Source: Cyanidioschyzon merolae
Lineage: Eukaryota
Length of the DNA: 64,000 nt
NCBI GenBank assembly: GCA_000091205.1
Contig: AP006496.2
Reading direction: 5' to 3' (one strand)
Shown: piece after piece, positions 5,264 through 57,454 of the stretch
Numbering within the stretch: position 1 is the first letter of the stretch
Layout of the letters: the number at the start of each line of letters is the position of its first letter
Made by a program: the position numbers and the translations under genes
The notes under the pieces: generated by a model
Told to the model about the DNA's origin: nothing
What the model saw: only the letters and a program-made list of their open reading frames with translations
The model's database searches: none

Positions 5264-6618
5264 GTGAAGGAAAAAATGAAGAGTGGGAGAGACGGAAGGC
5301 TGCCCTAATGGGGAAGCGCTTCGATGTGGTTCCAGTGTGCAAGATCAAGTCACATTTTGTGACTATCGACTCCGGCGTCCTCTACGGCATCATGAGGGAC
5401 ATCAGTCCGGAGTTCAGTGTCAGCAGGGAGAACTTCACCGGCGAAAACCGGGAGACGTACTTGAAGAACATCTCCAATTTCAAACGTCTGAGAGTGAACA
5501 AGCAAAAGTTGTTCACTGGGATGATCGAAACCGATGGAGTAGCCTTGTGTGTACACTATCGGCGGTTGAAGAAAGATCGGCCAGTTCCGCCCTCGGCTGC
5601 GCCCGTGACGAAGGGTGCAGAAAAGAAAGAGGCGGATCCTGAGACGCAGGAGGTGGAGGATAACGACTTTGTCGTTGAAGTGACGAAGGATGAAGATGAG
5701 AAGGAGGCGGATCCTGCGACACAGAAGGTGCAAGATAACGACCTTGTCGTTGATGCGGCGAAGGATGAAGATGAGAAGGAGGCGGATCCTGAGACGCAGG
5801 AGGTGGAGGATAACGACTTTGTCGTTTGCGCGGACCCTGGGAACACGAATATCATCACCATCGCAGCACCGAAGCGTGCGGAAGATGGTACTGATGGTAA
5901 CGTACGTCAGAAAGACATGCGAGTTTTGAGGATCTCGAGAGCGAGATACTATCGAGAATCGGGAATAATGAATGCGAGGAAGAAAATTGCTACATGGAAT
6001 GCAGGAATGAAGGATCACCTGGAAGCTTTGAGTGAGGTGACTAGCCGAAGAGCGGACTTTCAAGCTTTTCGGAAATTCATGGAAGTTTGCATTGTCCATT
6101 GGGATGCACTGTGGGAGGAGTATACCAAGGCCCGGTGGGCTCGTTTGCGTATGAATTTGTATTGTGGGAAGCAGCGGGGGTTCGCGAATTTATTCAATAA
6201 CTTGAGCGCCTTGAAGGAGGATGAAAATCAGAGGCTCGTCGTAGCATACGGAGCAGGGCGCTGGAAGACCCAAAAAGGGACTACTCCAGCTCCAACGACA
6301 AGAACATACAGGGAGTGCGCACGGCGTTTCGTTACGATACCTGTAGATGAGTTCCGAACGTCCTATGCACACCATGAACTGGGTTGTACACTTCAGAGAG
6401 TCGAGATGGAAAAGTGCCAGAGGAGCGCTGAGGAAATAGCAAAGTACGGACCGCTGACGGAGGCGCAAACGGAAAGGAGTGCGAAAGTTCGTGGACTACT
6501 CGCTTTAGTGAGTATAACTCCGGACGGGAAGAAACGTATGGAGTTTGTGAACCGAGATTTTAATGCCGCAATCAATCTACGGAAATGTGCGGTACTGGAC
6601 AAGAGACCTCCAGAGTAG
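5218..6618 (+). CDS. TnpB-like RuvC nuclease of a eukaryotic OMEGA (Fanzor-type) system, 466 aa
   Basis: Motifs in order along the protein: [15 protein letters not shown] (RuvC-I, Asp ~205); [20 protein letters not shown]...EKC (TS motif plus a degenerate H/C zinc knuckle); [18 protein letters not shown] (RuvC-III, the RDxNAAxNI hallmark of TnpB, Cas12 and Fanzor). The canonical RuvC-II Glu is not obvious; the expected position reads RLVVAYGAG. The start codon is uncertain: the tracker uses a GTG, and the frame stays open further upstream. Confidence 0.7.
5619..5830 (+). repeat. 75-bp (25-aa) acidic tandem repeat x~2.8 inside ORF2
   Basis: The unit gaggcggatcct...gatgaagatgagaag recurs at 5619, 5694 and 5769, encoding [25 protein letters not shown]. 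Copy B has a single unit. Confidence 0.85.
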
Positions 6619-6843
6619 ACAAGAGAGAACTTTATTGGACAACCTCTCAAAGTCGAACTATATGAGAAAATGTTGGAAGCAGTAGTGGGTGGCCGGTCCA
6701 AAAAGACGGGCAGGCGTCTGCACATCAGTCAGAGACGATTTGTCTAAGGCGCGTTCGCCGCCATTACTGTACGCCGCCGACGTCGTTCGACTCTCGAAAG
6801 GCGTTTAGTCGTGGCGACAAGTCTGCAGTTCCAGTTGCAAGCA

Positions 6844-9269: not shown

Positions 9270-9720
9270 TAGAGAGAGTTTCGGAAGGAAATGCACGCTG
9301 ATCAACAAGATATGAAATTTTGATCCGTCTTCACTTCCTTCGTGCAGAGCGCCGATGCATGATCCACGGGAAGCGATCCCAGCGATGACTAGAGTCCCAG
9401 GCCAAGACCTTTTTCCACGCAAAAAGAAGAAACGGGAGCCACTGGGAAGTTTCCTCCTGAGAGGGATCATATTGGTGCTGTCGAATCCGGCCTCGTCGAT
9501 AGACATGAGCGGAGGCGAATTTGCCTTTGTAACGAAATCGAGTATTGCACTCGAGCAGTTCAGTGAACATTCAGCAGGAGCGCGTGAACAGAACATCAAC
9601 GGACAATGTCGAGCTTTTCCCTTTCGTATTGCTGGCCCCACACCTTGCCTCGAAACGGAAAGATCAGAACCATGAAGAATATGTGATTTGAGAATGCAAA
9701 CTGTAGGAAAACGAGAAGAC
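9270..9720 (-). repeat. R1 dispersed repeat copy (reverse orientation)
   Basis: The reverse complement aligns to the 2.4 kb and 19.4 kb copies, for example ...gcatcggcgctctgcacgaaggaagtgaagacggatcaaaa... against ...gcgtcaccggtttgcacgaagaaagcccagacggttcgcc.... It explains ORF 9264..9641. Confidence 0.45.
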
Positions 9721-10199
9721 TCGAAACCTATAGATATGCACTGGATTCAAAAGTCGGTCAGCGGGGGAACCCATGTTCGAGGGCGTCGCGAATCATCTCG
9801 ATTCCGGTGCCATATCGAAATCCAGCGGCAAAATCCTTGGAGGAGCCATTCCGAATAACCAAAATCCACGAAAATCCTCGAACTCCATAGGAATTCGTAA
9901 CCTCTTTTCGCCGCTCTTTTCCATCTAGAGGCTATGCATCGAAAAATCCTTCGAAACGAAATCACAAGGCGGAAACAGCGCGAGCACTACGGTATTCCCT
10001 TTTCGTTCGACGCGCCCTTAGGGAAATACCCTACCGAGCGCGCAGCGCTGCGCTGCGCACGAGCACCAACGCACCAGAAAGCCTAGAGACGCACGGCGCG
10101 TCAAAGCGCCGTATACGATGCTATGCGCATCGCTGCACCACTCGTGGCGCTTTTCTGGTCTGGAGCCGAGGCACGAGGTGCACACTTCCGACCTCGAAG

Positions 10200-11096
10200 A
10201 TGACTCTGCTTGGATTCACGTATAATTTGTTGAGTGATGTTGCACTCTATAAAGGGCGCGCTTTGGCATCCACGTCCAGAGGGTGCAAAGCACGCAGTTC
10301 ACGTAGCCGCCGCTGGGCGCAGCTGCGTCGACGTTCGTCGCGGAGCACTGGAGCGCTTTTCCTACGTGCCGTTGAGGACGAGTCTGCGGAATCCGAGCTG
10401 CCGCCTGTCAAAGAGCCATATCCTGGATACTTTCGGGACCTGGAGCGCATGGGCGTGTCACGTGAGCAGGCAGTTGCACAGCTGCGTGAGAAGCTTGAGA
10501 GCAAACGGCCACCCAAGGACAAGAAAATTGGCGGCAAGGCGTCGCTGTATCGGCCAGACGGAACGCCCTACGCACCCTGGATGATTGGATTAGTGGAGGA
10601 GGAACCCTCAAAGGAGAAGGGTCTCGCTTCACGCACAGATGCACGAGGGCGACTCGCTGGTGACCCTCAAGCACAGGAAATTGCGGGTATCGGCTTGCGC
10701 GCCAGGATTGTGGACGACCGGGACGTCGAGCTACTGTGGCGCACCGAGGGTGAGACCAATAACGCGGGATTTCAGGTTTCACGGCGGCGTGGCAAGTCCA
10801 CGGACTGGGAAGTGATCGCAGACTACAAAAGCGCCCCCGACACGCTGCGAAGCAAGGGCGCACAAGGTGGAGCCTATCGCTTCATCGATACACCGCCAGA
10901 GGCTACGGGAACCTGGGTTTATCGCGTAAGCGACATTGATAATAGTGGCGAGGTGAGTGACCTATCGCAGATTCTAGTAGAATTCGAATCAGAAGCGGAG
11001 CGCAAACGACAGCTGTTGGTGTTAGCGGCACTCATCGGGACGCTTTTGCTCATAGGCACAGTGACCTCGATGCTGGATCCGCTTAGCGGCCCGTGA
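10200..11096 (+). CDS. Hypothetical protein, 298 aa; R/S-rich N-terminus, fibronectin-III-like middle region, C-terminal transmembrane anchor
   Basis: Long ATG-initiated ORF with protein-like composition. The conserved-looking segment is SLYRPDGTPYAPWMIGLVEEEP. The C-terminal hydrophobic stretch is LLVLAALIGTLLLIGTV. A (GCA)n tract follows the stop codon. Confidence 0.5.
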   Translation: MTLLGFTYNLLSDVALYKGRALASTSRGCKARSSRSRRWAQLRRRSSRSTGALFLRAVEDESAESELPPVKEPYPGYFRDLERMGVSREQAVAQLREKLESKRPPKDKKIGGKASLYRPDGTPYAPWMIGLVEEEPSKEKGLASRTDARGRLAGDPQAQEIAGIGLRARIVDDRDVELLWRTEGETNNAGFQVSRRRGKSTDWEVIADYKSAPDTLRSKGAQGGAYRFIDTPPEATGTWVYRVSDIDNSGEVSDLSQILVEFESEAERKRQLLVLAALIGTLLLIGTVTSMLDPLSGP

Positions 11097-14409: not shown

Positions 14410-14568
14410 AAACCAACACTAGCAACCGCAGCGACAAACGCTTCCCCTAAAAGATGCTCTCGTTTTGGGAAACGCTCAGTGCTTGCCCGTGCGCAGGGCA
14501 AGCATTTATCTCGCGAACAGAGAAAGGAATAGCAAGCTGTCCCAGCACGCGCAGAGCAAGAGACTTGA

Positions 14569-15217
14569 GAGCACTGCGATGCAGCACTCTGGAAGATTCC
14601 ATGCGACATGTACTCGTGCACGCATCCGCGGGTGCACGCATTCTAGGACACGTGTATGTATGTGCATAGGCCTGCATGCACTTGATCCGTGCATCAAGAG
14701 CACTGCGATGCAGCACTCTGGAAGATTCCATGCGACATGTACTCGTGCACGCATCCGCAGGTGCACGCATTCTAGGACACGTGTATGTATGTGCATAGGC
14801 CTGCATGCACTTGATCCGTGCATCAAGAGCACTGCGATGCAGCACTCTGGAAGATTCCATGCGACATGTACTCGTGCACGCATCCGCGGGTGCACGCATT
14901 CTAGGACACGTGTATGTATGTGCATAGGCCTGCATGCACTTGATCCGTGCATCAAGAGCACTGCGATGCAGCACTCTGGAAGATTCCATGCGACATGTAC
15001 TCGTGCACGCATCCGCGGGTGCACGCATTCTAGGACACGTGTATGTATGTGCATAGGCCTGCATGCACTTGATCCGTGCATCAAGAGCACTGCGATGCAG
15101 CACTCTGGAAGATTCCATGCGACATGTACTCGTGCACGCATCCGCAGGTGCACGCATTCTAGGACACGTGTATGTATGTGCATAGGCCTGCATGCACTTG
15201 ATCCGTGCATCAAGAGC
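14569..15217 (+). repeat. 129-bp minisatellite x5
   Basis: The unit gagcactgcgatgcagcactctggaagattccatgcgacatgtactcgtgcacgcatccgc(g/a)ggtgcacgcattctaggacacgtgtatgtatgtgcataggcctgcatgcacttgatccgtgcatcaa starts at 14569, 14698, 14827, 14956 and 15085, and the array ends at ~15217. Its length is a multiple of 3 (43 codons). That explains the long overlapping ORFs 14447..15430, 14465..15391 and 14506..15213, which are not genes. Confidence 0.9.
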
Positions 15218-15765
15218 GTCCTCTATCGACCGCTCGCCTTCATGTACCGATGCTTTCTCTTGCGTACATCCTCGGGATCGCATCAACGCCACAATGGCAA
15301 CCGTACCAACAGATTGCCGTCCAACGTCATCTGCGGATTGACACACCAGAAACAATGCGGTTTGGAGTTGGTTGACACACTTCAACGATAACGGTTCTGA
15401 GACTTTGGCGTAATGCCCATTGTGCGGCAAGTTTAGCAGCCTGGACTTGTCTCAATATCGAATAGGTCTCGGTGAGGCGGCGTCAAACACGAAATACAAA
15501 CGGACGCGGCTTCGTGACGGTGCGCACGGGGAGTTGGCCTTCTGCTTCCGTCGGTCGGACACGAGGCTGAGCCTCGGGAGTCTCAGTTAGACTCTGCACG
15601 CTACACGAGCTAGCAGAAACACTGGACCAATTTTTAGCGTGCTATCGGACGCTTACTGAACAAGTGCACGTTGCGGACGAGTGAGACGCTGGGCTTGTCG
15701 TCGGCCGCGGGCGGAGGCCATACTCTTTGGTTCAGAGTCGACTGGGAAAGGCCCTGCCAACGTGA

Positions 15766-17601: not shown

Positions 17602-19299
17602 AGGTCGCTCTGTATTGCTAAAATAGCCGTCCGGAGATTGTGAACCCAATGCGCTTGCACGGGAATTCAGGCCGTGTACTGGAGGACAGTGCGTGGCATC
17701 GCTTGCAAGAGTACATTGCCTCGGCTAGGGCGTCGCTAGCGCCTTGCTGGTGCATGGTACGCACGATCGGTGCAAGTGACGTACATCGGCCGACAGCAAC
17801 GTAGCCCTGAAAGTGCAGTAGTTCGCGCGTCCTGCATATAGAGCGCTAGTCGGGAACCTCTCCTGTTATCGTATCTGGGTAGCGGATCGCTCCATACGCG
17901 TGTTCGTGGAAAGCACCTCTTCGAGATTCAGCGCTTCTTTCTGACAAAGGAGATGAGTCCGTTGCTTGCAATGGATGCCCAATGCTCTATGCGAAAAATT
18001 TGCAGGGATTTGCGTATGCGCGCGCTGGCGACCCATGTCCAGCACACTCCTATGCAAGACGACTTGCGTTCGTGTTTCAGACTAGTCCTGTATCAGGTAC
18101 AAAGGAGCAGCAGCGACAGCACTGCAACGTACTTGCCTCAGCGAACGGTTGTGGTCAGCGCAGAGCCTCAGTAACGACGCAACGAGTAACGATGACGCTA
18201 GTTTCTCGCGGTGGTGATTCGTTTGCTTCAGTACGGGCATACCGTAGCGAGCGGTTCAGTCGTAGTATCTGGTGATCTTCTCGCCAAGGCCCGAACAACT
18301 TCAGTCAAAGCACGTTGACTGTAATCTCTCTGAGCAGCTGCGCTTGCGGCATTCCTCGCGTCCATGGTAGTCTCTCAGTGCGTGCAACGCTTCTGGATTG
18401 CCTGCAACCGATATAACGTAGACGCTCGCGTCCTATCACCCGCCATGACCCAGACGTCTTCATACAAACGGAATCCTATCCTCATCATTGCGCTGCTTGT
18501 GCGGTTCCCGAACGCGGGGTCGTGTATTTTCCAAGTGCTGTTTCCGATGCCACGCTTTGCATGAGCTTGAGTGCCGACGCATTACTGTGTTGCTTCTTCC
18601 TGTCCCGTTAAGCATCGCTCGGGTGAATGCGAGCAGGTGGCTTTTGACCGACGCGTGTGCATATATGCGACGTTTCATGGTATAACGCGGGTCCGTCAGG
18701 TGCGCTGCCTATGCGTCAGCGCGCGTGACAAGTCAGCGCGTACCCGATAGACGATCCAGCTTCACCTGTGCGACATAAAAATGGAACACTGAACTGCTCG
18801 CTCTGTTCAAGCACCTTGATCATTTTTCCGAACTTGCTAAGATATGCGTACGCGGGATGCAAAGCCCAGCAATAGGGGCTTAGGAATGCATACGTAGTTT
18901 CCGGATTCTCGATCAGGGTTTCAAAGTTGAGTCTTCGACGCTTTGCCTTTGGCATTCGATGCGTCATCAGAATGATGATGATTCTCGAAGCACGTGAACA
19001 GGGCTTTGTAAAGTAATCGACATTATTGTCCACTGCATACGTACAAGTATTCAATCTTCTCATGCCCTGATGTGGAACATGCGCAAATCACGATTGCTTC
19101 GAGTTTTCGATTTTTCTGGTTCGAGGCAAGTCGTGGGCGCAGCCATGCGTATCGTTGCATTGACGACGAAAGAAGAAACGTGATGTTGTCCCGTAATGAC
19201 TTGTTCATACGCTCATGTCGAAATTTCATGAAACATGTCACTTCATTCGATGATAGACTTTGTTAGAAATACGAATACTCTAGTCTCTGTGGTCATCGA

Positions 19300-19870
19300 C
19301 GAAACTGCATTCGATACCTGCACAATACTTCTCATGGGATATGCTCCCAGAGGCTCCTATGTCTTCAGAGTGCGCCGAAAATCCGCTTGGGATCGGACTT
19401 ATCCTAGTGACCGCTTCCAGTCGAGAGGGCGTCACCGGTTTGCACGAAGAAAGCCCAGACGGTTCGCCAACCCTCGACTTGATCTCTAGCCCGGATTTTC
19501 ATTCTGGTACATGTTTCACTGTCGATAAAATCTGGTTCCGTCAATGCCTTATGGAATGGGAAAGCACGGGCTCGCGCGTGCGACGGACAGGGTACTCCTC
19601 CGGGGGATCACGCAGACGACGACTATATTCGCAGTACATTGCATCGGGTGCTTCGAGCGAGCAGGGCAAAGATGGAAGACGTCTGTGCCCGTCGAGTGCA
19701 GGTACCGAGCCGTGAAGCAAGTATTGGCGTACCATAGGCCGGACCTTGCAGGAGTCATTGTGATGAACATACGTGAAAACCTGACAACAATCAAGTGTCA
19801 CCTGAACAAGAGGCACACCGAGCTGTTTACAACGACAATGAGCATCGCAAGTGAGGTGTAGATCGAAACG
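19300..19870 (+). repeat. R1 dispersed repeat copy
   Basis: It aligns to the 2.35-2.96 kb copy along its full length (for example cgaaactgcattcgatacc; gacttgatctctagcccggattttc; ccttatggaatgggaaagc; aagtgtcacctgaacaag). It accounts for ORFs 19341..19715 and 19544..19861. Confidence 0.5.
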
Positions 19871-20589
19871 GCCCCCGCAATGCATAGAGTGATTTGATAA
19901 CAGATAGAATCAGGGGAATCGGGTCTTCAATGCCGTCATCGACATCCTTTGACTGCTGGCAACGGAGCTGGAGGCAAATGCAGAGACCGATGTATTCAAG
20001 GCGGAAGCGAAGCGCGACGAGAAGGAAGCATTCACGGAACCAGCCCACTTACGTTGGTATCGATGATACTGGGAGGAGGTCAGAGCTTTGGGGTGAACGC
20101 CCGAGTCAGACGACCCTTTCCATGTTACCCTACCATGGACTCAGGAAAACCTTCCAGTGACACGAATTCGAGGCAGGATCCCATTTCACGGATACTGTGT
20201 TCGCGAAGCAACGACGTACCGATTCGGGTCACATTCGAGTTTCTGCAAAGCCGAGAAAACGGCACCGATTGTATATAGGGTAACTAGAGATGCCATTGGT
20301 AGGTGCAGGCGTGCTCCAGAATCCAGGACACCAACGCTGGAGATAGATCACCATCTGGGCCTCCGATAAACCCGGCCGTAGGCCACAAAATTTTACCTTC
20401 CTCCAATTGTTCGCAATTCAGCTGCGTCTCGAAAGCGAGCACACATTGCATACAAACCTGCAATACTTGAACGGCGATATTGTATTCGCATCGCGAAGCG
20501 CGCGAGCACCAAGTCACTCGTTTCTGGCTGCGTACGTGTTTGTGTGCAGGTCTTCGGGGCACCAACCGAGCACGTACAAGCATTATACC

Positions 20590-22419: not shown

Positions 22420-23040
22420 CTCAGGTTCTTAGAGTCTTTCATTTGAATCGTGTTTCAATCCTCAAGTAAGTGTAATCAAGTGATTTTTCAGGGTTTGTAG
22501 CTGGAGCATTCAGAGTGTGTTCTTTTTAAAAAATAAACTTACGGGAATGGAAGTGAAGGATCCTGGAGGCCGTCATCGCCGGATGCCAGAGAAAAAGGAC
22601 GAAAATTTCGATCTTCTCGCCGACCATCGAGGGAGAAGTGCAAGTGACGAAGAAGAAGAAGAACAGGGTAGGTAGATGACAAAAGATGTTTGTCCGACAG
22701 GATGATGACGAGACTGTAGTCGAATAGAGGCCACGAGTTCTGGCAATCCTTGCGATGGTGAGTTCAACCAGAGGCAATGCACGCATGGAGATCGTGAACT
22801 TTGACTTTAACGCCACCATCAATACCAGACGATGTGTGGTGCTGAAGACGACTGCTGACGATATGAGGCCATCTATGTTTGTTGGGAAACCTCTCAGATG
22901 CGAAGTGTGCTAGGAGAAACTGAAAACGGCTGCAGGCGGCCAGTCAAAAAAGGCCGGGAGGCGTCTGAGAGGGAGTATATTTCTTTACACTCTATGGATC
23001 TACAGTTTTTTCGTTTCATTGAACACAAGGGTGCTTTTCC
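22420..23040 (+). mobile_element. Internally deleted (~0.6 kb) non-autonomous derivative of the Fanzor-family element, copy C
   Basis: Its 5' part (22444-22700) aligns to the leaders of A and B (ttgaatcgtgtttcaatcctcaagtaagtgtaatcaagtgattttt; ggatcctggaggcc...gccagagaaaaagg; gacgaagaagaagaagaac). Its 3' part (22780-22990) keeps a RuvC-III remnant, MEIVNFDFNATINT, and the conserved end block ggcggccagtcaaaaaaggccgggaggcgtctg. About 2 kb of internal sequence is missing. Confidence 0.55.
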
Positions 23041-25608: not shown

Positions 25609-27049
25609 CCTCGCTCTTGTCGAAGAACGCAGCAGACGCGCTGGTACACACCGGGTGCCCCTGAGAGCACCTACGCCTTCAAGCGGTTACACGAAGTAAG
25701 CCAGGAGTGTGTTCGTCGGGAAAAACGCACAGACATCTGCACTGCACCCAGGTTGTCTGAGAGGTACCTGGTTGCTGCGTAGCGCCCTTTCCACAGTCAC
25801 AAGAGCGGCTTGCCGCCTGCCGTCGCGACCAGCCATAGCGGGATAGGTGGCTGCTCAGATGCATCGGTGCCGTTTCCCTGCTCGAAACAGGATCGATAAC
25901 CAGAGAAGCGACTAGCGTTCGTTCGTGATCCCTTTCGCATTCCAATAGCTCCAGACCGGTTTTAGGCCTTGCGATAGAGCTTTGATCGATCCGGCGACTT
26001 TTTCTTGTTGCCAGTCTTCTGAGGATGCTCGTGGCGGTGCTGGATGTATCGTTGCCCAAGTTGCTGTAGAGAGCGCGCACGCGCGGGTACGTGGTACCTC
26101 TAGGGGCATCGATTCGAGATGCGCTGGTGATGCCCTCGATCAGCTGTGTTTCCCTCTTGGGAAGTGCATTTGTAAAGTTGGCCGGATTCCAACGCGTTCC
26201 ACGGGCTCCTGCGTCGCGATCAAAGTGCCGTAGATACGTTGAACCTCAGCAGTAGCAATGATAACAACACGCTGCATTCGAAGAGGTGAGCAACGCACCC
26301 AGGTTTTGGATGCGCAGCACAAGTGCTCGTTCCGATTCCATGGTATCGGGGCTTTGACGAAAGCTATCCCTTGGAACAAAGAGTCTTGACCCGGCGATGC
26401 CGAGATACATCCTCATTTGTCTGTGACGCAGTCCTGAAACCTTACTGGTATTCGCTGCCACCGGTTACCTACAGGCAGCGTTTGGCACTAGCAGACGCAG
26501 CCGCGGATGCACCCACCCTGCAAATATGATCTTTTTTTGACTGGCAGAACGTTTATAGGAACTGGGTGTCCGATTGTGCGATGTGGATCGGCAGCACAGA
26601 TGCAAACATCGTAGAGAGCGGCGACTTGGACGAGGCGCACTCTTCGACGAACGGTGAACAGGTGCGTGCAACAGCCATCTCACTACACTGTAAGAAAGAA
26701 ACGCACCAGGTGGAGTAACTTGGATGTAAAGAATAATGTATGGGTCTCTTTCCAAAGTCGTGAACAGCAGCCTGTTCGGAATTTTCGTGCGACTGTTTCG
26801 CTTTCCGGTCTGCGATATCCGATTTTTACTACGGGGTCTCTCCTTTCCTTCCAGCTCTGTTGCTCGCAGTCAAAGAATACTGATTTCAGCGTTAGGGTCC
26901 CGACTTCACTGCTTCGAGGTGTGGTCGACGCATATTGTCCCCAGTCGGAAGCTTCAATCTAAGCTTCAGCTGCCGTTTCGGTCCTCTGCCGTAGACAGCG
27001 ACGGTGCGCTCTTCGCATCGATAACCCTTGACTGTGCTTAGGGGTTGTT

Positions 27050-27340
27050 GTTCGTGCACCGCAACCACTCTTTCGACGGGGTCACCCTGGAGAATCCCGT
27101 GATCGTGGAATACTGTACCATGTGCGAAACGAAGCATGGCATCGAGACGAGCCTTGTGTACCCATCAACCGCATGCACCGAGCGATGCAGCAAGCGTTCA
27201 GGCGTCATAGACCGGACCTCGGACGCCGAGAAGCGGTGAACATACCCGACAATCTGACCATAGTCAAGTGTCACCGAGGCAAAATGCGCACCGATCAGTC
27301 TACAAATAAGATAAGAATGGCAAGCGAAGCGCACATTCCA
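27050..27340 (+). repeat. Partial (3' half) R1 dispersed repeat copy
   Basis: It aligns to the 3' halves of the other copies (aatcccgtgatcg; gcatcgagacgagcc; caagcgttcaggcg; catagtcaagtgtcaccgaggc). It explains ORF 27122..27466. Confidence 0.4.
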
Positions 27341-27890
27341 ACGACCACCTATGCATACCCTGTGTTGACAACAGCCAGAATTAGGGAAATCGCGACTTTC
27401 ATGCTATCATCAGCATCTTTTTCTGCGTATAACAATGCTGGGGCCAAGGAGAAACCTGCGAAATGAAAGCCGGAGTTAAGACAAAGGACAAGGGAGCATT
27501 CGCAGAACTTGCCCACAAATGCTTGTGCTGGTTACACGTAGAAAAGACCCAAACTTTAGTGTATACCCCGAGTTAGCCAGGCATCCCTGTTTCGGTCTTG
27601 TCTGACATGGATGTAGTATTCTGGAGTATCTACGCTCTGAATCCGAGCAGAGCGTTGCAAACTGTCAAACGAAAAAAATGTCGCCGTGTCAGAGCGCAAC
27701 CCCTGCCGGGGCGCGTGTCTCGCAGAGAGGGCGGCGCGAGCGCACTGCTTCCATTGGCGTGGCGTTTTCTCTACCACGTGTCTGAGCGCTTGCACGCACT
27801 GCATCCACCCTGCACTTTGCTGCACTTGTAGTGCTCGTTTTTCTTCGAATTGCAATGCGCTTTCTTTGTCCAAATAAGCTCTCGTTGCAA

Positions 27891-30149: not shown

Positions 30150-30565
30150 TGATCTCAGACCGGAGAAGAATATCTTATCATCCAGGATCGAGCATTGAGT
30201 GCACTTTTGATTACACAAGGAGCAATCGTGTAGCATTCACGGATTACATACCGCAATGCGTCTCCTTGCATATATCGTTCATCGGTAGAAGAATATCTTA
30301 TCATCCAGGATCGATCATTGAGTGCACTTTTGATTACACAAGGAGCAATCGTGTAGCATTCACGGATCACATATCGCAATGCGTCTCCTTGCATACATCG
30401 TTCATCGGTAGAAGAATATCTTATGATCCAGGATCGATCATTGAGTGCACTTTTGATTACACAAGGAGCAATCGTGTAGCATTCACGGATCACATACCGC
30501 AATGCGTCTCCTTGCATACATCGTTCATCGGTAGAAGAATATCTTATCATCCAGGATCGAGCATT
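30150..30565 (+). repeat. 123-bp minisatellite x~3.3
   Basis: The unit gaagaatatcttatcatccaggatcgagcattgagtgcacttttgattacacaaggagcaatcgtgtagcattcacggat(t/c)acataccgcaatgcgtctccttgcata(t/c)atcgttcatcggta starts at 30165, 30288, 30411 and 30534. Its length is a multiple of 3, which explains ORFs 30134..30688 and 30155..30550. Confidence 0.9.
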
Positions 30566-42671: not shown

Positions 42672-45160
42672 TGGCAGGCATGAGACACGACGTGCATCTC
42701 GCTGTTGAGGGGAAACGAGATCCTGACCTTTAGTGTGCAGCTCTAACCTACAAGTTGTATTATGGTTGAAGTCATAGCAGAGTATGCTCTCTCGATTCAA
42801 TCGTGTTTCAGCCCTCAAGCAAGTACATTCAAGTGATTTTCCACGATTTATAGCGGACGCATTCGAAATAGGATCTTTTTCAAAAATAAAAAAGAAAAGT
42901 AATCGAAATGGAAGTAGAGGATCCCGGAGGCGCGGTGTCACCTGCTGGTGGAAAAAAACGAAAAACAGAGTCAAACGTAGAGGAACAAGACATGACGAAG
43001 AAGCAGAAGAAGAAGGCCCGACGCCAAAGGCTGCGAGAAAGATGACAATACTACGAGATTGTTGTAAAAGCCTGTCTTCTTGGATAAATCAAGGATCTGT
43101 ACAAGCAAAAGTTACGAGAGGCCATCAGAAACTGTGTAGATTCGTACTCCATGAGTGGTATAAAGGCTTCGTCAGGGCTAATGCATTTGGTGAAGGAGCT
43201 GTATCGGGACCTGATGGAAATCAAAAGACGCGTGGTTCCGGAAGGTTTATTCAACAAGACCTTTTTTCGCCACCTGATTGTTGGCACAGGGGCAGCGTCG
43301 AGAAGAGATGAGGGAATGCACGCCCTCTACGAAAAATTCGCCGAATTCCGCTTCGACGGTACTCGATACATGGGTGATGCGGATATTTACGGATGCGGGG
43401 CAATGAAGTACCTCACGAATCTGAAGAACAATATGCTCAGTATCCTCGAACGTTTCATGTTACGTTCTATCTTTGCGCTGTACCCGGGCCTGTCTCGCAA
43501 TGGGATATGGGGCATCATCGAAAGTATCACGAACAATCGCCAGCATGAAGATAGGATCCAATCCGTCGACGACAAGACATCACGCAGGAGCAGGAATGAA
43601 GCTTCTGTATTGCGTACGGCTATACAGGAGCATCGTGCGGTACGGGGACTGGCGAATCCTGCAGAAAAGGTAACGGAAATGAAAAAAGATGTTATCACCT
43701 CATCCTAAGCTATTTCGTGCTTCTGGACCGAGAACTCGAACGCAAGGCAGAGATGGAGCTGGGCGTGAGAAAAAATGAAGAGTCGTTGGAACGGAAGGCT
43801 TTCCTGATGTGGAAGCGCTTCAACGTGGTTCCGTTGTGCAACATCAAGTCACATTTTGTGACTATCGACTCCGGAGTCGTTCATGGCATCGTAAGGGAGA
43901 TCAGTCCGGAGTTCGATGTAAGCAAGATAGAGTTCACCGATGAAACGCGGGAGACGTACTGGAAGAATATCTTCGATTTCAAACGTCTCAAAGTGAGCAA
44001 GCAAAAGCAGTTCACTGGGATGATCGAAACCGATGGAGAAGCCATCTGCGTACATCATCGGCGCTTGAAAGCAGATCGTCCAGTTCCGTCCTCGGCTTCG
44101 CCCTCGGCGAAGCATGAAGAAAAGAAGGTGGCGGATCCTGCGACACAGAAAGTGCAGGACAACGACTTTGTCGTTGGCGCGGCCCCCGGGAACTTGAATA
44201 TCACAACCATTGAAGCACCCAAGTGTGCGGAACATGGTGACGACGGCAACTGACGTCAGAAGGACATGCGTCTTGTAAAGTTCTCAAGGGCGAGGTATCG
44301 CCTAGAATCGTGAATAATGAATGCAAGGAAGAAATTTGGGACTTGGAATGCAGGAGTGAAGGAGCGCCTGGAAGCTATGAGCGCGGTGACGAACCGCGGA
44401 GCGGGCTTTGACTATTTTCGGGAATTCATGGAAGTTCGCATTGCTCATTGGGATGCGCTGTGAGGGGAGTACACCAAGTCACGATTAGCTCGTAAGTGTA
44501 TGAGACTGTACTGTGGGAAGCAGCTTCGCGTCGCGAACTTCTTCAATGAATTGAGCGCCCTCAAAGAGGATGAAAGGCGGAGGCTTGTAACAGCATACGG
44601 AGCAGGACGCTAGGCTTCCAAAAAAGGAGCATACCTGTTCCATCGACAAGAGTGTACAAGGAGTGCACACATCGTTTTCTCACGATACGGGTAGATGAGT
44701 TCTGAGCGTCGTATACACACTTCGAGCTGGGGTGTATACTCCAGAGGGTCGAGATGGAAAAGTGCCAGCGGAGCTCTAAGGATGTAAAAAAGTACGGAGC
44801 GCTGAAAGAACAGGAAATGGAACGGAGGGCACAGGTTCGAGAACTCCTTGCACTGGTGGGTACAACCAACGGGGGCAAGAAACGCATGGAGTTCGAGAAC
44901 GGTGACTTGTTCTCGCCGCAATCAATAGAACGAGATATGCGGTCCCGGAGAAGAGACCCGACGCGCTAACACGATCTAAAATTCGCAGGGCAGCCGTGCA
45001 GTGTCGAGGTGTACAACGAGAAACTGAAACCAGTAGCAGAGGGCCGGTCCAAAAAGACTGGAGGCGTCTGCACGTCAGTTGGAGATGTATTGTCTATGGC
45101 GGTCACTCGCCACTAATGTGCACCGGTTATGCAGCGTTTGATGATTGAACGGCATGCCTG
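42672..45160 (+). mobile_element. Fanzor-family element, copy B (degraded)
   Basis: It is collinear with copy A from ctggcaggcatgagacacgacg (about 4165 in copy A) through the conserved 3' block at 45031-45080. It has an AT-rich leader. Coding capacity is disrupted; see the pseudogene feature. Confidence 0.65.
43717..44969 (+). pseudogene. TnpB-like ORF2 of copy B, inactivated
   Basis: The RuvC-I Asp is replaced ([14 protein letters not shown] against [14 protein letters not shown] in A). There is a stop after ...CAEHGDDGN at 44253, and further frame breaks. The RuvC-III region has degenerated to MEFENGDLFSPQSIERD. The ORF1 homologue upstream also carries TGA and TAA stops (43043, 43085) and a TAA at 43706. 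Confidence 0.65.
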
Positions 45161-48412: not shown

Positions 48413-48900
48413 TTGCTGAAAGGCGTCAAGGCCTTCGCCCTACCGTTAGATCACGAGGGCGGAGCCAAATACCTGAACCGTAACCAGATGACGCCGCTCA
48501 GCTCTTCATGGACTTGGTATCATCGAGAGTCGGGCTTGATGGACCCCAGGAAGCACATCGCCAACTGGAATGACGACGACACGGCCTACCTTGATGCTCT
48601 GGGCACCATGCCATGCAGGCGCGGACACTTTGAACGCCTCGTCTGGAGAATACGTGAGAGCGCGCCTGGGCCGCCAACAGTTTCGGTTACAAGGATTCGC
48701 GACGTTTGCATTCGTCAACGTCTCTAATGACTTGGAAAAAGAAATGACCCACTGGTTGTGTCATTTGCTCGTAGCCAATCGCGCTGGACGTGCTGTAGCG
48801 CGCAAAGGCTGCACTCCTGGGGCCCCCGCCAGCACCCGAATCGAGTGCTGGAATCTCTTCTGTACGATTCGCATCGATGCGCTCTAGATGACGTACACGT
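48413..48900 (+). pseudogene. Divergent TnpB/Fanzor-like relic, copy D
   Basis: ORF 48413..48727 contains WYHRESGLMDPRKHIANWNDDDTAYLDAL. The counterparts are [28 protein letters not shown] in copy A and RARYRLES*IMNARKKFGTWNAGVKERLEAM in copy B. The ~130 aa that follow in A are collapsed here, and no RuvC-III motif is recognisable. Confidence 0.3.
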
Positions 48901-49565
48901 TTCAAGATTCGAGGAAGACGCTGAAGCAGGCTGAGCAGGAAAGCTTCAAACAGAGCTGAATGCACGAGATGGTGTCCTTGAAGACGAACAGACGTCAAAT
49001 GAGGATACAATAGAATAAGACAGGCCTGCACGGGGGTGTGTGCGAGCACCACCAACGATGCGCGCAAGCATTTTATGCACCAAGTCTTCAGCGCCTCAAT
49101 CAACATCCGAAAATATCTCGTGCTTCTGGAGCGTTCACACGCTTTAATTCAAGCAAGCCTTGGACGGAAGCGTTGAGTACTCTGAGTAGACGTTATGCGG
49201 AAACGCTGAAAACTTGTTATGAAAAAACCAGTCGCCAGTACAGTGGCAGTTGGATGCGCACCCGAAGCAAGGCACTGGTACAGTCCGCTTCGACAAGCCA
49301 GAGGCGCTGGACCGCCGCATGCATATACCTGGAATTTGATTCCTGGTTCATCGATAGACGATTATGGTGCTCCATGTTTCGATGTGACTTAGAAGCGGAC
49401 CGGTTCAACGCATGAGTGCCAAAATCGCAGCAGTATACACCAGAATGCACTAGGATATAGCGGCAAGAAAACAACAAGGATACAGGACCTTGTCAAGAGA
49501 TGGAGTGAACTATGGTCTTTTACATTTCGCCGTCGCGCTTTTTCTCGAAGAGTTTGTTTCATGGA

Positions 49566-50750: not shown

Positions 50751-51659
50751 TTTTATTTGTTCTCCTAAATTGAGTTGATGATGAACGAGGCTTCAAGATT
50801 CTGTGAACTAGTTACGATCTCGCACAACGCTTACCCAGTTGCGTGGCCGGCAAGCTGCGCGTCCAGTGGAGGGTTTCGTATCCGTCGAGCTGCGAAGGCG
50901 GATAAGAGCAGTGCCTGGAAACGGATCGCCGCCGCCGCCGCCGCCGCCGTCGCCGCCGCAGTTGTGCCATCAGCACAGGCCGCGTATATTCGCCGATCGT
51001 CGTTGCATTGAAGAGCAGAGGGGCATTTCGTACAGACTGTACATTTATGTCAGTTTTGAGATCAGACGGACATAGGGATGTTGTGGACGATTCGTGTTGT
51101 TCATTGATCGCGAGCTTGGTACCTGGAGCGTTGCATGATCGAGCTGGGATCCCTAACGATCGGACCAGTCTGAGGCTGGTGGAATGAAACAGGTACAGGA
51201 TATACTAGATGATCTTTTTCGCGGCTGCTGGGAGAACTCGCGTATGCGCTGGGATTCCGATGGAGTGCATCGAGCTTCCATCATTAAAGCAGGGGTGACG
51301 CATAGTCTATTCCCGGCGGAATTGGTGCAGATCGGCAACGATCCCTGCACGCCCGATTACAAGCGGCACTTACGCATTTGCAAGAATTTGGGTAGATCCG
51401 CCTACCCGGGACGACGTGACAGGCAGCATACGACCTTCGTTGGTGCGCACTAAATAATGCACATTTGTATTCCTAGCAAGTATAGTGCACCTGGTAGGCG
51501 TTGGCTTTGAGCCCCGATGGTCGTTCTGCGGAAAACATAAAGTATGTGTACGAAAGTCCTCGTTCACAGCAGAGGATTAGCACCGTCGTAGCCAAAACAA
51601 GGCCGGGTGACTGGCAGGTGTTCGGATCTCTTGGTCAGCGATCTGGTCTCTCGGACATT

Positions 51660-52856
51660 GCACCCATATCAGACGAAACGGGAAGGCCTACAAACAGATG
51701 ACTCGAGCGTCCGTTCAAAAGTTCGGGTCTATTGCCAATGCCATCCAACATGGGCCTCCGCGTGCCTTTGAGCTGCCTGCTGTTTTCGCTCTCTCTTACC
51801 TTCGGATTTACATGCGCCTGTCGCTCATGAACCTCTCCCAGCTGCGATGTCAGCCGTCGACAGATGTCGACGGGAGCGTTCAAGTCCCGACTGCGCCGTT
51901 CCCGGCAGTTGTCGACGCATTTCGTGCACGAGCGGAAGTTGCAATGCACAACCCGTCTGCCGTTTTTCATCCTCTCTGTACTCGGACGCAGACTGCCCGT
52001 CACCACGATGACATTTGATCGCACTCAGGTGTTTTCGCAGGTTAAGAACACGTGCCTCTCTGAACGCCGCTCTGTGGCGCGTGAACGCTTGCCTCAGTGC
52101 TCGGTAGACGCCCTTGGCGGGTGCAGGAGGCTCCACTCGATGCACTCTTCCATATCCCCGCCCAGTGCCGTACATCTGAATCACGGGCTTGTTCTGGGCG
52201 GTGCCTTTGGTATCTACGTTGTTCGCTGTATGTGCACGCGCACGGTGCTCGCTCCAATAAAGGACTTGCGGGACGCCTTCTTGCCCATATGAAACAAGTG
52301 CCAGAGGGAAGTCCGGCCAGACGAAGAATTCGCGGCGGTGCGATTCGCCCACGCGCGCGTCTTGCACAGCGCTGACGCGTTCTCCAGTGGAGGCGCTCGC
52401 TGCGATAACTAGGGTCCGAGTCCAGTACACGGTGCTGTGTAGGCACAGGAGCCGCGATGCTCTGTGAGCGTACTCCCTGAGAGGCAACATGCTGCTGCTG
52501 AATGCCGCTGGGTCGATGGCCACGAACCAAAGAGCATCTGCCTTCGGAACCAGGTCAATGATCTCCGGCGACAAGCACAGTGAGCTTTAGGCATCGTGCT
52601 GTGAGCAAGATGTCGAAAGCAGACTTTGAGCGTTTCTCGGCGTCCATAAAGCAGCGCAGGCCTCTGCGCCAACGTGTTGCCTTGAAACAGAAATGCAGGA
52701 TAGCTGACGCATATGTGATTTGAGCATTCTGCACATAAGGAAAGGAGAAGTGTGCAGGCGTGAATGTAGGTATTGGATCATGGTATTGGTTTTGCTACAA
52801 ACCGCTGTCCCATGATGTCGCGAGTCGCCTAGAGTCCGGTGAGCCACCGAATACCA
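51660..52856 (-). repeat. Inverted-repeat arm 1 (~1.2 kb; contains an R1-family copy and a 249-aa ORF reading outward)
   Basis: Its reverse complement is ~99% identical to 55988-57192. The ORFs 51825..52574(-) and 56279..57028(+) are the same 249 aa apart from 3 substitutions. Boundaries were set where identity is lost: at ...ataccaa|t on the inner side and after ...SSDMG on the outer side. Confidence 0.85.
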
Positions 52857-53756
52857 ATTTCAAACAAAAAAAAACACGCGAAGAAGCTACTCCTAAAACA
52901 CGACCGAGACTCCCGGAATTCTGCATGCATCTGCAGGCCCTCCATACTGCACTTTAAATACCAATGCGGTGCACCCAAGAAATGTTAAGAAAAAATCGAA
53001 AGGCAGGAACAGATCGAGCAGATCAGTGTTCTATCCATATCTGAAACGGGTGTCGCGCATACGCTGCGTGCGATGGGCTCGGCACCGGCGAAGCGTCTCG
53101 TCGCCCGTCTCAGACAACAGCTTTTGAGACAACATTGTACCAGGGCGCACCGCCAGCTGCTAGAACGCATCCGCATCGATCATCGCCTGCGCCGCGCTCC
53201 GCGGGCGCTTCACACCGGGCAGCGTCGCAGGCCGTCGACACCACCTCTTTTCTGAGACAAAAAGGACACAGATCCATCGACCGGCGATCGCCGCATGGCT
53301 TCGCCAGCCGGCATGCCTGCATGGTGGCGCTCAGCGCGTTTTCCGCAGCCGCACCCGGACGCTGCGCCGTTCAGATTGAGACGATTTGAATCCGGGTCTG
53401 CGCGCGCGGCAGTTCGTGCGCGCGCACCCTCCTCAGAGCGCGCAAACGTGTTGTTTGGTGTCTTTGACCCAGAGGCTAACCTAACGAGGTTTCCGCAAGG
53501 CGTCTACGTACGTACTAGATAGAAACTTTCAAGGACGACTTTACCGCCTTGATATCTTAGTGGATTCAGCGCATAGAACAAGTGTTTCTCTCTCGAACCG
53601 AGGAGTCGCGCCACCGAAACCTGACGAGTCCGTTATCCGGTTCGCGCCGCCACGTTTTACCCGCTGCTTAGCTCAGGTCGGCAAAACACCAGGGAACTGA
53701 AGTGAAGTTCATAGTTTTCACTGTTTCGTGAGTATTTTAATTGGAAAGGTCATCAA

Positions 53757-54038
53757 ATGGTTGGTAATAATACGGAAGCAGGAATGGCGAAGTTTCTGGA
53801 GTTAAAGGCAGCTTTCGAGGACGTGTATGAGGACACGACAAAGTTTTTCGAGAAAGGGAACAAGGCCGCAGCCGTTCGTGCTCGTAAGAAGCTTTTAAGG
53901 TTGCGAGAAATTGCACAAGAAATGCGTGTTCTCATTCAGCAGACGAAGGCGCAGCTAGAGCAGGAGCACAAAACCGCTCGAACCAGCGGCGGGGGTGGCG
54001 GTTTGGGCGCAGACAACCAAGTGTCCATGGGAGAGTGA
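53757..54038 (+). CDS. Small protein (93 aa, or 84 aa from the second ATG at 53784) with an Hc1-like (chlamydial histone-H1-like) N-terminal motif
   Basis: MAKFLELKAAFEDVYEDTTKFFEKGNKAAAVRARKKLLRLREIAQEMRVLIQQTKAQ against my recollection of Chlamydia Hc1 MALKDTAKKMTDLLESIQQNLLKAEKGNKAAAQRVRTESIKLEKIAKVYRKESIKAE. The EKGNKAAAxRxR core is shared, and the distance from the start is the same. There is an AT-rich tract directly upstream. It has no K/A-rich tail; it ends in a Gly run. Confidence 0.4.
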   Translation: MVGNNTEAGMAKFLELKAAFEDVYEDTTKFFEKGNKAAAVRARKKLLRLREIAQEMRVLIQQTKAQLEQEHKTARTSGGGGGLGADNQVSMGE

Positions 54039-55987
54039 GCTTTCCTTCACCGGAGCGCTGCTAAGCCACGATGGCTTTTTCGTGCTGTATTTGTTGAATC
54101 GGTAAGCGTTCAGGCTCTTGAGGTCCGCGCCCTTGAACTATTTGCTCCTGTATGACCGCAACTCGTACTGGTTTTGTTTTCTGGACATCGTCCTGAGCCT
54201 TCCCACGGTTCGTCGCCTGTTTCGGCCGCCACAGCTGATACTTTGCAGGCCACGTGCAGGGTCTCCAGAGGCAGGCCGAAGTTTTCTCCGTACGCGGAGG
54301 GTTCGTGGCGGATCGATGAGTCCGTCAGGTTTCTCTAATTCCGAAACTATGCATAGAATCGACGTTCTCTGTGATGAAAGATAGTTTGAGCCAAAGATAT
54401 TGCAGCAACGAATTGTGAGCCGCTTGCATCGGACTCAACGTGACTAGCAGCCGTACCAGAGGAAGTAAAGATCCCGAATGGTTCCTAAATAGTTCTCTCG
54501 TGTCATGGTTGGAACTCCCGGTCAAATGAATGGTCAGGGGATTTTCTGGAATGTGTTCCACGACGAATACTGGGGCTCGTTTTGATTGTATTCCATTTTG
54601 CGGCCTGAGGGTTTCCGAATGAAGGGTTTCCAATTCTGATTAATTTATGCTGCGAAGATCGGACACTCTTGCTGATAGAAGCTGCTGACGCCCGTAAGGA
54701 ATGCCCCACACGAGAGCAAACTTGCCAACGGCTCTTCGATACCAGCACGCTCTTCGTTAGAGCGAAGCCGTTCACCCTAGAGCCACAGGTGCGTCGAGAG
54801 GACTTAGAGTTCCCGGTTAGTTTTGGACGTGCCTGTTACTCGTTGTTTTGGCCGCCAGTCGTGTCGGATAAGGCGACTCGACCTGACACGGAGCGGGCTC
54901 TTGACATATAAAAGAAGAGGCGGCGCGGCAAGGGATCCAACGGGAAGCAGGGAGGGAACGTGTCCGTCTGTTCCATCACGGACCTGATCAGTGATCCTGC
55001 AGCTAAGTCTTTCGATTGGGGAGGGTCTGCACCAATGTATACCTTTGAACAGAGGGATCCAGAGCGATCGAGGCCGTTCGCCTCGCACAAGGCACGAGGC
55101 GTCGTTTACAGAGCGACGCCCCTTTCATGAGGCGTACCCGGCGTGCTCGCTGCTGCCTTACCGAGCGGAACGTTATCCCTGGCGTCTGATGAGAACACTT
55201 TCCCGCTATATTCTACAGAACCGCTTTCGGCTCCTGGGCTCAAGACAGCTCTTGTCCTCTACATCCAGCGCGTTGCAGCGCATGAATCTACAGTGAGTCT
55301 GCTGCATATCCTGCACGTTTGCGAACCAAGCTGAGCACAGCTCGTGCACTCCTATGCAAAAATGGCTACTCTTTTGATCTTCAGCATGTTGCAGCATTCG
55401 AATCGGAACAGCGACCCGTTACCGAACATGTCTCCAGTTTTTGGACGTCGCTGCGGAAAGGAAATGCACCAGCCGATGATGCAGAGTGTACAGATCCGTA
55501 TCATCCTGATGGTGACGCTGCTGGCTTGGATTCGTTCAAACTATCGGGACACTGGGTCGGAGCCTCGCTATCACTTTAAATGCAATCCGCGTGAGCCTCG
55601 AGTGTACCTGTTGATGGAGGAATTTCGAATCTTTGGAAACTGGAGCGCTTGGTGCCCACGGCGCTGCATTTACCCCACTCGTCCCGTGGAGAGAAGCTCG
55701 CTCTGACTTCTATCCTGGTTGTCCAACTGGTGCATTCTATAGCCGGATCGGGCCATGGACGAACGATTGGGCATTCAGCGACCGCCTGAGACACGTCGCA
55801 TCTACGTACTGTACTTGCGTGCGATGAAAATGGAACACTGATCTGCTCGCTCTGTTCCTGTCTTTCTATTTTTGCTATACTTTTTTAGACTTGCAACCTC
55901 GGCATTTGAAGTGCAGCAATACGCGCAGACGAAGTCAGACGTCGTTTCAGTATCGTCGGCAGTATTTTTGGAATGCCTCCCTCGGCA

Positions 55988-57192
55988 CTCTGGCGCTGGT
56001 ATTCGGTGGCTCACCGGACTCTAGGCGACTCGCGACATCATGGGACAGCGGTTTGTAGCAAAACCAATACCATGATCCAATACCTACATTCACGCCTGCA
56101 CACTTCTCCTTTCCTTATGTGCAGAATGCTCAAATCACATATGCGTCAGCTATCCTGCATTTCTGTTTCAAGGCAACACGTTGGCGCAGAGGCCTGCGCT
56201 GCTTTATGGACGCCGAGAAACGCTCAAAGTCTGCTTTCGACATCTTGCTCACAGCACGATGCCTAAAGCTCACTGTGCTTGTCACCTGAGATCATTGACC
56301 TGGTTCCGAAGGCAGATGCTCTTTGGTTCGTGGCCATCGACCCAGCGGCATTCAACAGCAGCATGTCGCCTGTCAGGGAGTACGCTCACAGAGCATCGCG
56401 GCTCCTGTGCCTACACAGCACCGTGTACTGGACTCGGACCCTAGTTATCGCAGCGAGCGCCTCCACTGGAGAACGCGTCAGCGCTGTGCAAGACGCGCGC
56501 GTGGGCGAATCGCACCGCCGCGAATTCTTCGTCTGGCCGGACTTCCCTCTGGCACTTGTTTCATATGGGCAAGAAGGCGTCCCGCAAGTCCTTTATTGGA
56601 GCGAGCACCGTGCGCGTGCACATACAGCGAACAACGTAGATACCAAAGGCACCGCCCAGAACAAGCCCGTGATTCAGATGTACGGCACTGGGCGGGGATA
56701 TGGAAGAGTGCATCGAGTGGAGCCTCCTGCACCCGCCAAGGGCGTCTACCGAGCACTGAGGCAAGCGTTCACGCGCCACAGAGCGGCGTTCAGAGAGGCA
56801 CGTGTTCTTAACCTGCGAAAACACCTGAGTGCGATCAAATGTCATCGTGGTGACGGGCAGTCTGCGTCCGAGTACAGAGAGGATGAAAAACGGCAGACGG
56901 GTTGTGCATTGCAACTTCCGCTCGTGCACGAAATGCGTCGACAACTGCCGGGAACGGCGCAGTCGGGACTTGAACGCTCCCGTCGACATCTGTCGACGGC
57001 TGACATCGCAGCTGGGAGAGGTTCATGAGCGACAGGCGCATGTAAATCCGAAGGTAAGAGAGAGCGAAAACAGCAGGCAGCTCAAAGGCACGCGGAGGCC
57101 CATGTTGGAAGGCATTGGCAATAGACCCGAACTTTTGAACGGACGCTCGAGTCATCTGTTTGTAGGCCTTCCCGTTTCGTCTGATATGGGTG
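55988..57192 (+). repeat. Inverted-repeat arm 2
   Basis: See arm 1. Its outer end lies 44 bp from an in-frame ATG (57236) upstream of the SHMT conserved start. Confidence 0.85.
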
Positions 57193-57454
57193 TAGGTATG
57201 CAACGCATCCGCGTGCTTGCGAACGTGCGTCGATTATGTACATAACTGGACACTACTGGCCACTTGCTCTGATCGTCGCCGCGGGGAGCTGGCGCACGGC
57301 CTCGGGGCCTGCCCTCGGCACCGGCCCCGCAGCCGATGCCGGTACGCGCCGTGGGCCGTGCCAATCCAGAATCGTATCCACGACACTAGTGCTTACGATT
57401 CGGTGTGAAGCACAGTTTTCGCAAGCCACAGTTGTTCACTTTTGCGCTATCAAC

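Follow-up and report, generated by a model that had tools for sequence, protein, structure and literature searches.

How can two copies of an old, decayed repeat, lying in opposite orientation on one chromosome, be almost identical over most of their length and no closer than other members of their family over the remainder? This question is raised by an inverted repeat in a stretch of 64,000 nt from the red alga Cyanidioschyzon merolae (assembly GCA_000091205.1, contig AP006496.2), the whole of which was analyzed and is referred to here as the window. The repeat lies on chromosome 14, between the divergently transcribed genes for the triose-phosphate translocator (TPT) and SHMT. Its two arms are the 3' parts of two units of a dispersed family designated R1. 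Gene conversion from arm to arm is probably the process that keeps them alike, and R1 itself appears to be a relic of a Fanzor1 element, a eukaryotic relative of TnpB.

The arms, 51661-52856 on the minus strand and 55997-57192 on the plus strand, are each 1196 nt long and differ by 6 mismatches and 0 gaps, an inverted repeat far above chance expectation. An earlier note, made from the letters alone, had claimed such a repeat; it exists and had been essentially correctly placed, although the left arm starts at 51661 rather than 51660 and the right arm at 55997 rather than 55988. Five of the six mismatches are crowded into 89 nt (56284-56372), which leaves one at 57110. The arms are separated by 3140 nt and their ends are sharp on both sides. 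The outer flanks, CGGACATTG up to the left boundary and TAGGTATGC from the right boundary onward, have no repeat in common. A second, short inverted repeat, I2, pairs 52980-53034 with 55830-55884 at 85% identity, about 120 nt inward of the arms. The parts of the locus are as follows, open reading frame being abbreviated as ORF.

51661-52856, minus strand: left arm, with 99.5% identity to the right arm; it is module B of the left R1 unit, its 3' 1196 nt
52857-53046, minus strand: left 5' module, A_L; homologous to the family, about 60% identical to A_R, found in 0 environmental contigs
52980-53034, minus strand: conserved 5'-terminal block of the left unit (GGAACA...TGTTCC), one half of I2
53047-55817, no strand: unique spacer between the two complete R1 units (2.8 kb), without repeat-family homology
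53757-54038, plus strand: Hc1-like (histone H1-like) ORF of 93 aa in the spacer (Pfam PF07432, E 2.8e-15)
55818-55996, plus strand: right 5' module, A_R; within it, the conserved terminal block occupies 55830-55884
55997-57192, plus strand: right arm, which is module B of the right R1 unit
56279-57028, plus strand: ORF of 249 aa, a putative Fanzor1-like gene fragment; mirror copy at 51825-52574, minus strand
56829-57245, plus strand: ORF of 138 aa in the +1 frame with a zinc ribbon and RuvC-III remnant (HCNFRSCTKC...SRDLNAPVDI); mirror copy at 51635-52024, minus strand

Alignment to the other R1 copies defined what the arms are. Arm positions 1-1196 aligned end to end (nhmmer, E 1e-63 to 1e-73) with copies at 8650-9824 (minus strand), 18950-20132 (plus) and 2011-3029 (plus), and with two 5'-truncated copies at 26.6-27.7 kb. 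The R1 copy had been thought to sit within about 0.3 kb of extra flanking sequence on each side; instead, the arm is R1 from position 1 to 1196, and the homology runs 178-190 nt further inward past each arm, ending at the conserved block AAAATGGAACACTGAnCTGCTCGCTCTGTTCC, which corresponds to I2. The R1 unit is about 1375 nt long and consists of module A (178-190 nt) and module B (1196 nt). Pairs of R1 copies other than the two arms were 48-62% identical, a divergence of 38-52% where 25-35% had been proposed. With module A as a separate search target, no solo A module was detected in the window. The remaining copies in the window are as follows.

1827-3054, plus strand: copy c2k, diverged and 3'-truncated
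8650-10012, minus strand: copy c9k, diverged, full-length
18769-20132, plus strand: copy c19k, diverged, full-length
26631-27663: two 5'-truncated copies, head to head and 56% identical (27095 to 26651 on the minus strand and 27013-27660 on the plus strand)

The head-to-head pair at 26631-27663 has its 3' ends outward, as in the main repeat, and the two copies overlap by about 80 nt. With this pair included, the window has five R1 loci, of which two are tail-out inverted pairs. Since a Cyanidioschyzon-like contig of 55% GC, L007, carries two further decayed copies (1990-3237 and 9273-10476, in direct orientation, 7 kb apart), R1 is dispersed beyond the window. Neither target-site duplications (TSDs) nor terminal inverted repeats (TIRs) were found at the ends of R1 units. 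Only a weak direct motif, TCWGAYATGG (TCWGAYATGGRT), recurs near both the 5' and 3' unit ends, for example at 53020-53046 and 57175-57195, and it is too short and diverged for terminal direct repeats.

Identity between the two units of the main repeat is a mosaic. A_L and A_R were 60.5% identical, no closer than other pairs in the family (54-62%); at the A/B junction, identity switched to 99.5% and was held for 1196 nt to the 3' end of the family homology. No homology was found outside the R1 3' ends of the pair. Insertion of a new R1 copy into an old one was considered and rejected, as no displaced old module B is present past the arm ends.

The locus was compared with an environmental sample of 21 contigs (hot-spring metagenomes, Logan assemblies; L006, L007 and L022 lie elsewhere). 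Contigs that match the locus were 99.2-99.7% identical to it. Arm position 892 is A in both arms of the window and T in 19 of 19 environmental arm sequences. Position 1177 is C in both window arms, and A both on SHMT-linked arms (L008, L009) and on TPT-linked arms (L013, L014, L016); assignment to an arm is reliable at this site because it lies 19 nt from the unique flank. The two-site haplotype CA/AG at 1087/1089 was likewise found on both arms. Parallel mutation at the shared sites is unlikely, which argues that sequence has moved between the arms.

The extent of the near-identical tract also varied. In three independent assemblies, L015, L018 and L020 (one with k=141), an R-type A module adjoins the spacer on its left; the switch sits at the unit's very end, and the repeat there covers the unit as a whole. 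The A_R-B junction was present in 17 of the 21 loci and the A_L-B junction of the window in none, and two A_L-specific probes gave 0 matches each against JGI metagenome contigs. Taken together, the mosaic identity, the variants shared by the arms in the population and the variable tract length point to non-reciprocal recombination between the units as what keeps them alike. The suggestion of ongoing gene conversion in the earlier note is supported by the identity jump inside the unit, by the arm-shared states at 892/1177 and 1087/1089, and by the variable tract.

Four alleles are special to the right arm of the window (56355, 56367, 56372 and 57110). At these sites the other environmental arms and the left arm of the window carry the alternative state, and L012 alone shares 56355. 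The grouping of 56355, 56367 and 56372 within 18 nt suggests one complex event or a short patch.

The following sequence of events would account for the repeat. Two inverted R1 copies, with their 3' ends outward, came to flank a 2.8-kb unique segment with the Hc1-like gene. A break or stalled fork in one arm would be repaired on the template of the other, and near identity would have been both made and maintained by such non-reciprocal homologous recombination between the inverted copies. The conversion tract would stop on the outer side at the end of family homology, and on the inner side at the strain-variable boundary; conversion of module A from the partner arm would have 1196 nt of identity available on one side. 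The anatomy, family membership, mosaic profile, arm-shared polymorphisms and decay of the ORF are shown by the data; from them we infer the recombination mechanism, and the pair may go back either to two old insertions or to a single younger duplication. C. merolae carries out efficient homologous recombination in gene targeting. A search of the literature on nuclear inverted repeats and gene conversion in C. merolae returned nothing relevant.

It is very doubtful, but conceivable, that conversion was triggered by the Fanzor nuclease of a still-intact genomic Fanzor1 copy, cutting at R1 unit ends. If so, repair of the break from the partner copy would overwrite the sequence exactly up to the element terminus. 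That would account for tracts that end at the 3' terminus of the unit and, in wild populations, also at its 5' terminus, and it would be a eukaryotic counterpart of the TnpB-promoted retention of transposons by homology-directed repair.

Several observations weigh against gene conversion as the process that keeps the arms alike. Old copies that are 60% identical could not start canonical homologous recombination, and this barrier to initiation therefore requires either a younger origin or homogenization that has gone on without a break ever since the copies inserted and that the 5' module escaped. The three sampled lineages have diverged by 0.41-0.65%, and the arms, which differ by 0.5%, are no closer to each other than that, so youth alone could account for most of their identity. 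Module A may have been replaced in either direction between the window and wild populations. Finally, linkage of alleles more than about 150 nt from unique flank rests on short-read contigs that cross the repeat, and arm assignment is safe only for 1177 and, less surely, for 1087/1089.

In a different account, a single decayed R1 unit (A plus B, about 1375 nt) gave rise to an inverted copy of itself at a distance of 2.8 kb, not long before the divergence of the sampled lineages. The likeness of the arms would then reflect their youth, and the left A module would have been replaced later in strain 10D. The account fits the wild contigs, where the repeat spans the entire unit and stops exactly at its 5' terminus; it also fits the outer end, which is the 3' terminus of the unit, the match between the arm difference (0.5%) and lineage divergence (0.4-0.65%), and the restriction of A_L to the window. 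However, 130-190 nt would have had to be replaced ectopically in 10D by sequence from a donor only about 55-60% identical, without flanking homology, and the arm-shared polymorphisms would still demand conversion. Nor is a mechanism of duplication evident, given the broken Fanzor ORF and the lack of a TSD, and no other young copies were found. We consider this account rather unlikely as the explanation of the identity, and the recent inverted duplication proposed in the earlier note survives as a possible origin of the pair, given the same divergence values and the whole-unit repeat in wild contigs.

It is very improbable that selection keeps a functional pair identical, whether as a domesticated protein (CMN329C, discussed below) or because the two copies act together as regulatory or boundary elements of TPT and SHMT. 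The arm ORFs and both flanking genes do read outward, the 10D annotation lists the ORF as a gene, and the arms are covered by contigs that may be either DNA or RNA. Against this, the ORF has a premature stop in wild populations, its C-terminal end departs from the frame of the ancestral protein, and it has neither a Pfam domain nor a homologue of >90% identity beyond this locus.

A composite or foldback-type mobile element, with R1 termini moving the Hc1 spacer as cargo, was a further suggestion of the earlier note and is highly improbable. Near-identical inverted terminal modules do surround a short cargo, and another head-to-head R1 pair is present at 26.6-27.7 kb, but that pair is truncated and only 56% identical, and the arms of the main repeat are decayed, non-functional gene fragments. 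No TSD was found at the outer ends, no second spacer is present in the window, and a search for the arm-spacer-arm unit with TSDs elsewhere, which the note had proposed as a check, found none in the window or in the 21 related loci. The related contigs with enough unique flank all map to the TPT-SHMT locus; odd junctions occur only in L012 and L013, where they are mutually inconsistent and look chimeric.

False doubling of a single copy in inverted orientation during assembly is extremely unlikely, as there is independent confirmation of both outer junctions and of the inner junction on the right: although repeats that exceed read length are prone to misassembly and the A_L-B junction is in no independent contig, independent assemblies hold A_R-B (17 loci) and the junctions of B with the SHMT and TPT flanks, contigs halt at the repeat boundaries as a real two-copy repeat predicts, and the arms differ at six positions.

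The environmental contigs also bear on the orientation of the spacer. L013, L014 and L016 link A_R-B to the TPT flank, and in L020 the spacer is reversed relative to SHMT. These links suggest flip-flop inversion of the spacer, although the path of each such contig may be the assembler's choice because it runs through 1.2 kb of repeat or more. L011, a palindromic contig, was set aside as a fold-back that arose in assembly at a natural palindrome of 12 nt near 53416, and the 5' parts of L012 and L013, unrelated to the locus and different from one another, as probable chimeras. The palindrome (GTGCGCGCGCAC) lies in a GC-rich segment, 53380-53490, at which several environmental contigs stop, turn back on themselves (L011) or continue into unrelated sequence (L012, L013). 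This segment is either an assembly trouble spot or the transcript start of the Hc1-like gene.

What the R1 unit encodes was addressed with a consensus rebuilt from the alignment, which reads in one frame through PVIAVYGTGRGNGAGH and EHLTTIKCHRCEGHT to VDCNFRLCTKC. The consensus matched Pfam PF07282 (Cas12f1-like TNB, the OrfB zinc ribbon) with 31.9 bits (E 1.5e-7; gathering cut-off, 26.3 bits), whereas the arms' own translations had no match to PF07282; the threshold is passed by the family consensus only. The consensus is collinear with residues 487-679 of CMe-1 (BLASTP, E 6e-4, 22% aa identity). A profile of the R1 consensus together with its environmental homologues, which retain the consensus motifs, was compared by hhalign with a Fanzor1 profile built from six published Fanzor1 C-terminal halves, and matched it over 168 columns with a probability of 99.0% (E 5.8e-18).

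A HMMER profile scan of 1.84 billion representatives detected full-length relatives, 550-800 aa in length. P0022 (756 aa), the best of them, matched the R1 profile with E 3e-103, and P0023 (551 aa) with E 2e-80. P0022 has the TDGV and GxDPG (RuvC-I) motifs of Fanzor1. The arm itself matched P0022 directly (tblastn, 46% identity, E 5e-13), with nt 56615-56848 corresponding to residues 566-639. The N-terminal 540 aa of P0022 had no match in any R1 copy of the window; R1 retains only the last ~240 aa of a protein of ~750 aa, and none of the R1 copies in the window has an intact ORF. Because of the matches to TNB, to the Fanzor1 profile and to P0022, together with the missing counterpart of the first 540 aa of P0022, R1 is best read, as judged from its sequence, as an ancient, decayed, 5'-deleted derivative of Fanzor1 (eukaryotic TnpB-like), distinct from the CMe-1A family of the same genome.

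The motif described by Bao and Jurka, D-X(125,275)-[TS]-[TS]-X-X-[C4 zinc finger]-X(5,50)-RD, was seen in the reconstructed consensus (AID...LTTIKCHRC...CNFRLCTKC...), where the D falls in the DDE_3-like part rather than in the Fanzor RuvC-I. In the arms the same motif is interrupted: SAIKCHRG is followed by a 1-nt frameshift and then by HCNFRSCTKC...SRDLNAPVDI. The arms are predicted to be inactive in RNA-guided DNA cleavage. RNAalifold gave no support for a 3' omega RNA structure in five R1 3' ends (-2.44 kcal/mol with a positive covariation term), these copies being too diverged for a fair test. Rfam had no match over the R1 3' ends, and a PDB sequence search with the R1 family profile returned chance ribosomal matches only.

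The N-terminal half of the consensus (VFVAIDETAFDSSMIPLRGYAPRGSR...TLVIAAIASSGE; about 56320-56520 in the window) resembles the first 67 positions of Pfam DDE_3, a domain of IS630/Tc1-like elements. An origin of this half from an IS630/Tc1-mariner DDE_3 transposase (PF13358) was tried and rejected, as the score of 19.7-21.7 bits is below the cut-off of 28.6, single copies had no match and a word-index search was empty. The resemblance may reflect a chimeric origin of R1, or only a likeness of RNase-H folds.

The 249-aa ORF begins with TTG and reads outward in each arm. The earlier note had taken it for the uninterrupted frame of the family; the outward ORF is present in both arms, but it is not the ancestral frame, as its last ~46 codons are out of frame. 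Its C-terminal 116 aa are identical to CYME_CMN329C (XP_005537433.1) of C. merolae 10D, and the left-arm ORF, when started at its first ATG, gives exactly the sequence of an archived protein of 221 aa. Exact look-ups of CMN329C and of the flanking proteins in a contig index gave no record. As it stands, the ORF has no Pfam domain, and among 5.8 billion proteins it matched a single significant cluster, whose contigs come from this very locus. In six-frame tblastn comparisons between R1 copies, all frames scored alike and none was favored. The frameshift in the arms is one extra base in GATGAAAAACGG, ahead of the zinc ribbon, and the first zinc-finger pair reads CHRG; it is this extra base that puts the last ~46 codons out of frame relative to the family consensus. 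The zinc ribbon and SRDLNAPVDI fall in the overlapping 138-aa ORF and not in the 249-aa frame.

Arm position 892 (window 56888; left arm 51965) lies in codon 204 of this ORF, which is AAA (Lys204) in both window arms; all environmental contigs have TAA there, a stop. Even within the species, then, the frame annotated as CMN329C is not conserved. The 249-aa ORF appears to be a frameshifted fragment of a Fanzor1-like gene that is not under coding constraint. CMN329C, annotated as a "hypothetical protein" in the reference genome, would then be a fragment of a second, hitherto unlabelled, Fanzor1-derived repeat family.

That the window is 10D-like chromosome 14 follows from the identity with CMN329C and with the archived 221-aa protein and from the copies of CMe-1A described below. 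The neighboring genes (TPT, SHMT, PIP5K, a dual-specificity phosphatase and an ABC transporter) are eukaryotic and intronless, and the GC content is about 55%. An in-frame ATG for SHMT, noted previously, is indeed located at 57236, 44 nt beyond the right arm. The spacer has no other copy in the window and no homology to the repeat family. The Hc1-like ORF that had been noticed in it was confirmed; the match to the Hc1 (chlamydial histone H1-like) domain is a clear one in a red-algal nuclear genome, and the 93-aa ORF was called on every environmental contig that covers 53757-54038. Neither Rfam, at the gathering threshold, nor ARAGORN gave a match over the whole window. Tandem repeats are present inside long ORFs at 14439-15346 (129 nt, in about 6 copies that reach 100% identity) and 30164-30565 (123 nt, 3 copies, 97%).

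The locus offers a compact natural case of probable gene conversion between the arms of a small nuclear inverted repeat, with a structural polymorphism between the reference strain and wild populations, and it may serve as a marker locus in studies of recombination in the Cyanidiales and as a natural reporter for intrachromosomal recombination in C. merolae. It leaves the understanding of Fanzor elements and of inverted repeats unchanged, and its chief value is in annotation.

One of the closest known systems is CMe-1A, the Fanzor1 family of C. merolae, which is old and dispersed, with no TIRs and no detectable TSDs (Bao & Jurka 2013, PMC3627910). R1 resides in the same genome and is likewise old, dispersed and without TIRs or detectable TSDs, and its encoded protein has the C-terminal layout of Fanzor1 (LYxxxQRAxA, xYGxG, E-x-x-T-[TS], zinc ribbon). 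In contrast, R1 has 22% aa identity to CMe-1 and no DNA similarity to it, its unit is ~1375 nt compared to 3169 nt, and no R1 copy in the window is intact. CMe-1A is itself present in the window, as near-full-length copies at 4402-6744 and 42902-45094 (both plus strand; 70-77% aa identity to the CMe-1 consensus, ~76-81% DNA identity to one another) and as more diverged fragments at 22710-22976 and 48473-48956; at 5218-6618 a CMe-1A copy retains an ORF of 466 aa. P0022 and P0023, from related hot-spring algae, are Fanzor1-like as well, and residues 566-639 of P0022 match the arm ORF, but they carry the N-terminal ~540 aa with TDGV and GxDPG (RuvC-I) that have no counterpart in the R1 unit. Bacterial TnpB-only elements of the IS200/IS605 type, such as IS1341, resemble R1 in that a TnpB-type gene is the sole coding content, without TIRs or TSDs, and R1 has a conserved subterminal 5' block with hairpin potential. 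In this comparison, made via the Pfam TNB domain only, R1 differs by having no detected 3' omega RNA structure, no TnpA, and a gene that is truncated and decayed.

With the palindromes of sex chromosomes and the inverted repeats of plastids, the locus shares near-identical inverted arms, sharp boundaries, a unique spacer and derived states shared within a lineage. Inversion of the spacer is an expected by-product in palindromes under concerted evolution, and is suggested here by contig links only. Here, however, the arms are short (1.2-1.4 kb) and made of transposon relics instead of genes, and their inner boundary, which varies among strains, falls within a repeat unit that is older. The arm pair behaves like other small palindromes under concerted evolution, and its building block belongs, in decayed form and without the N-terminal two thirds of an intact Fanzor, to the Fanzor1 branch of the TnpB superfamily.

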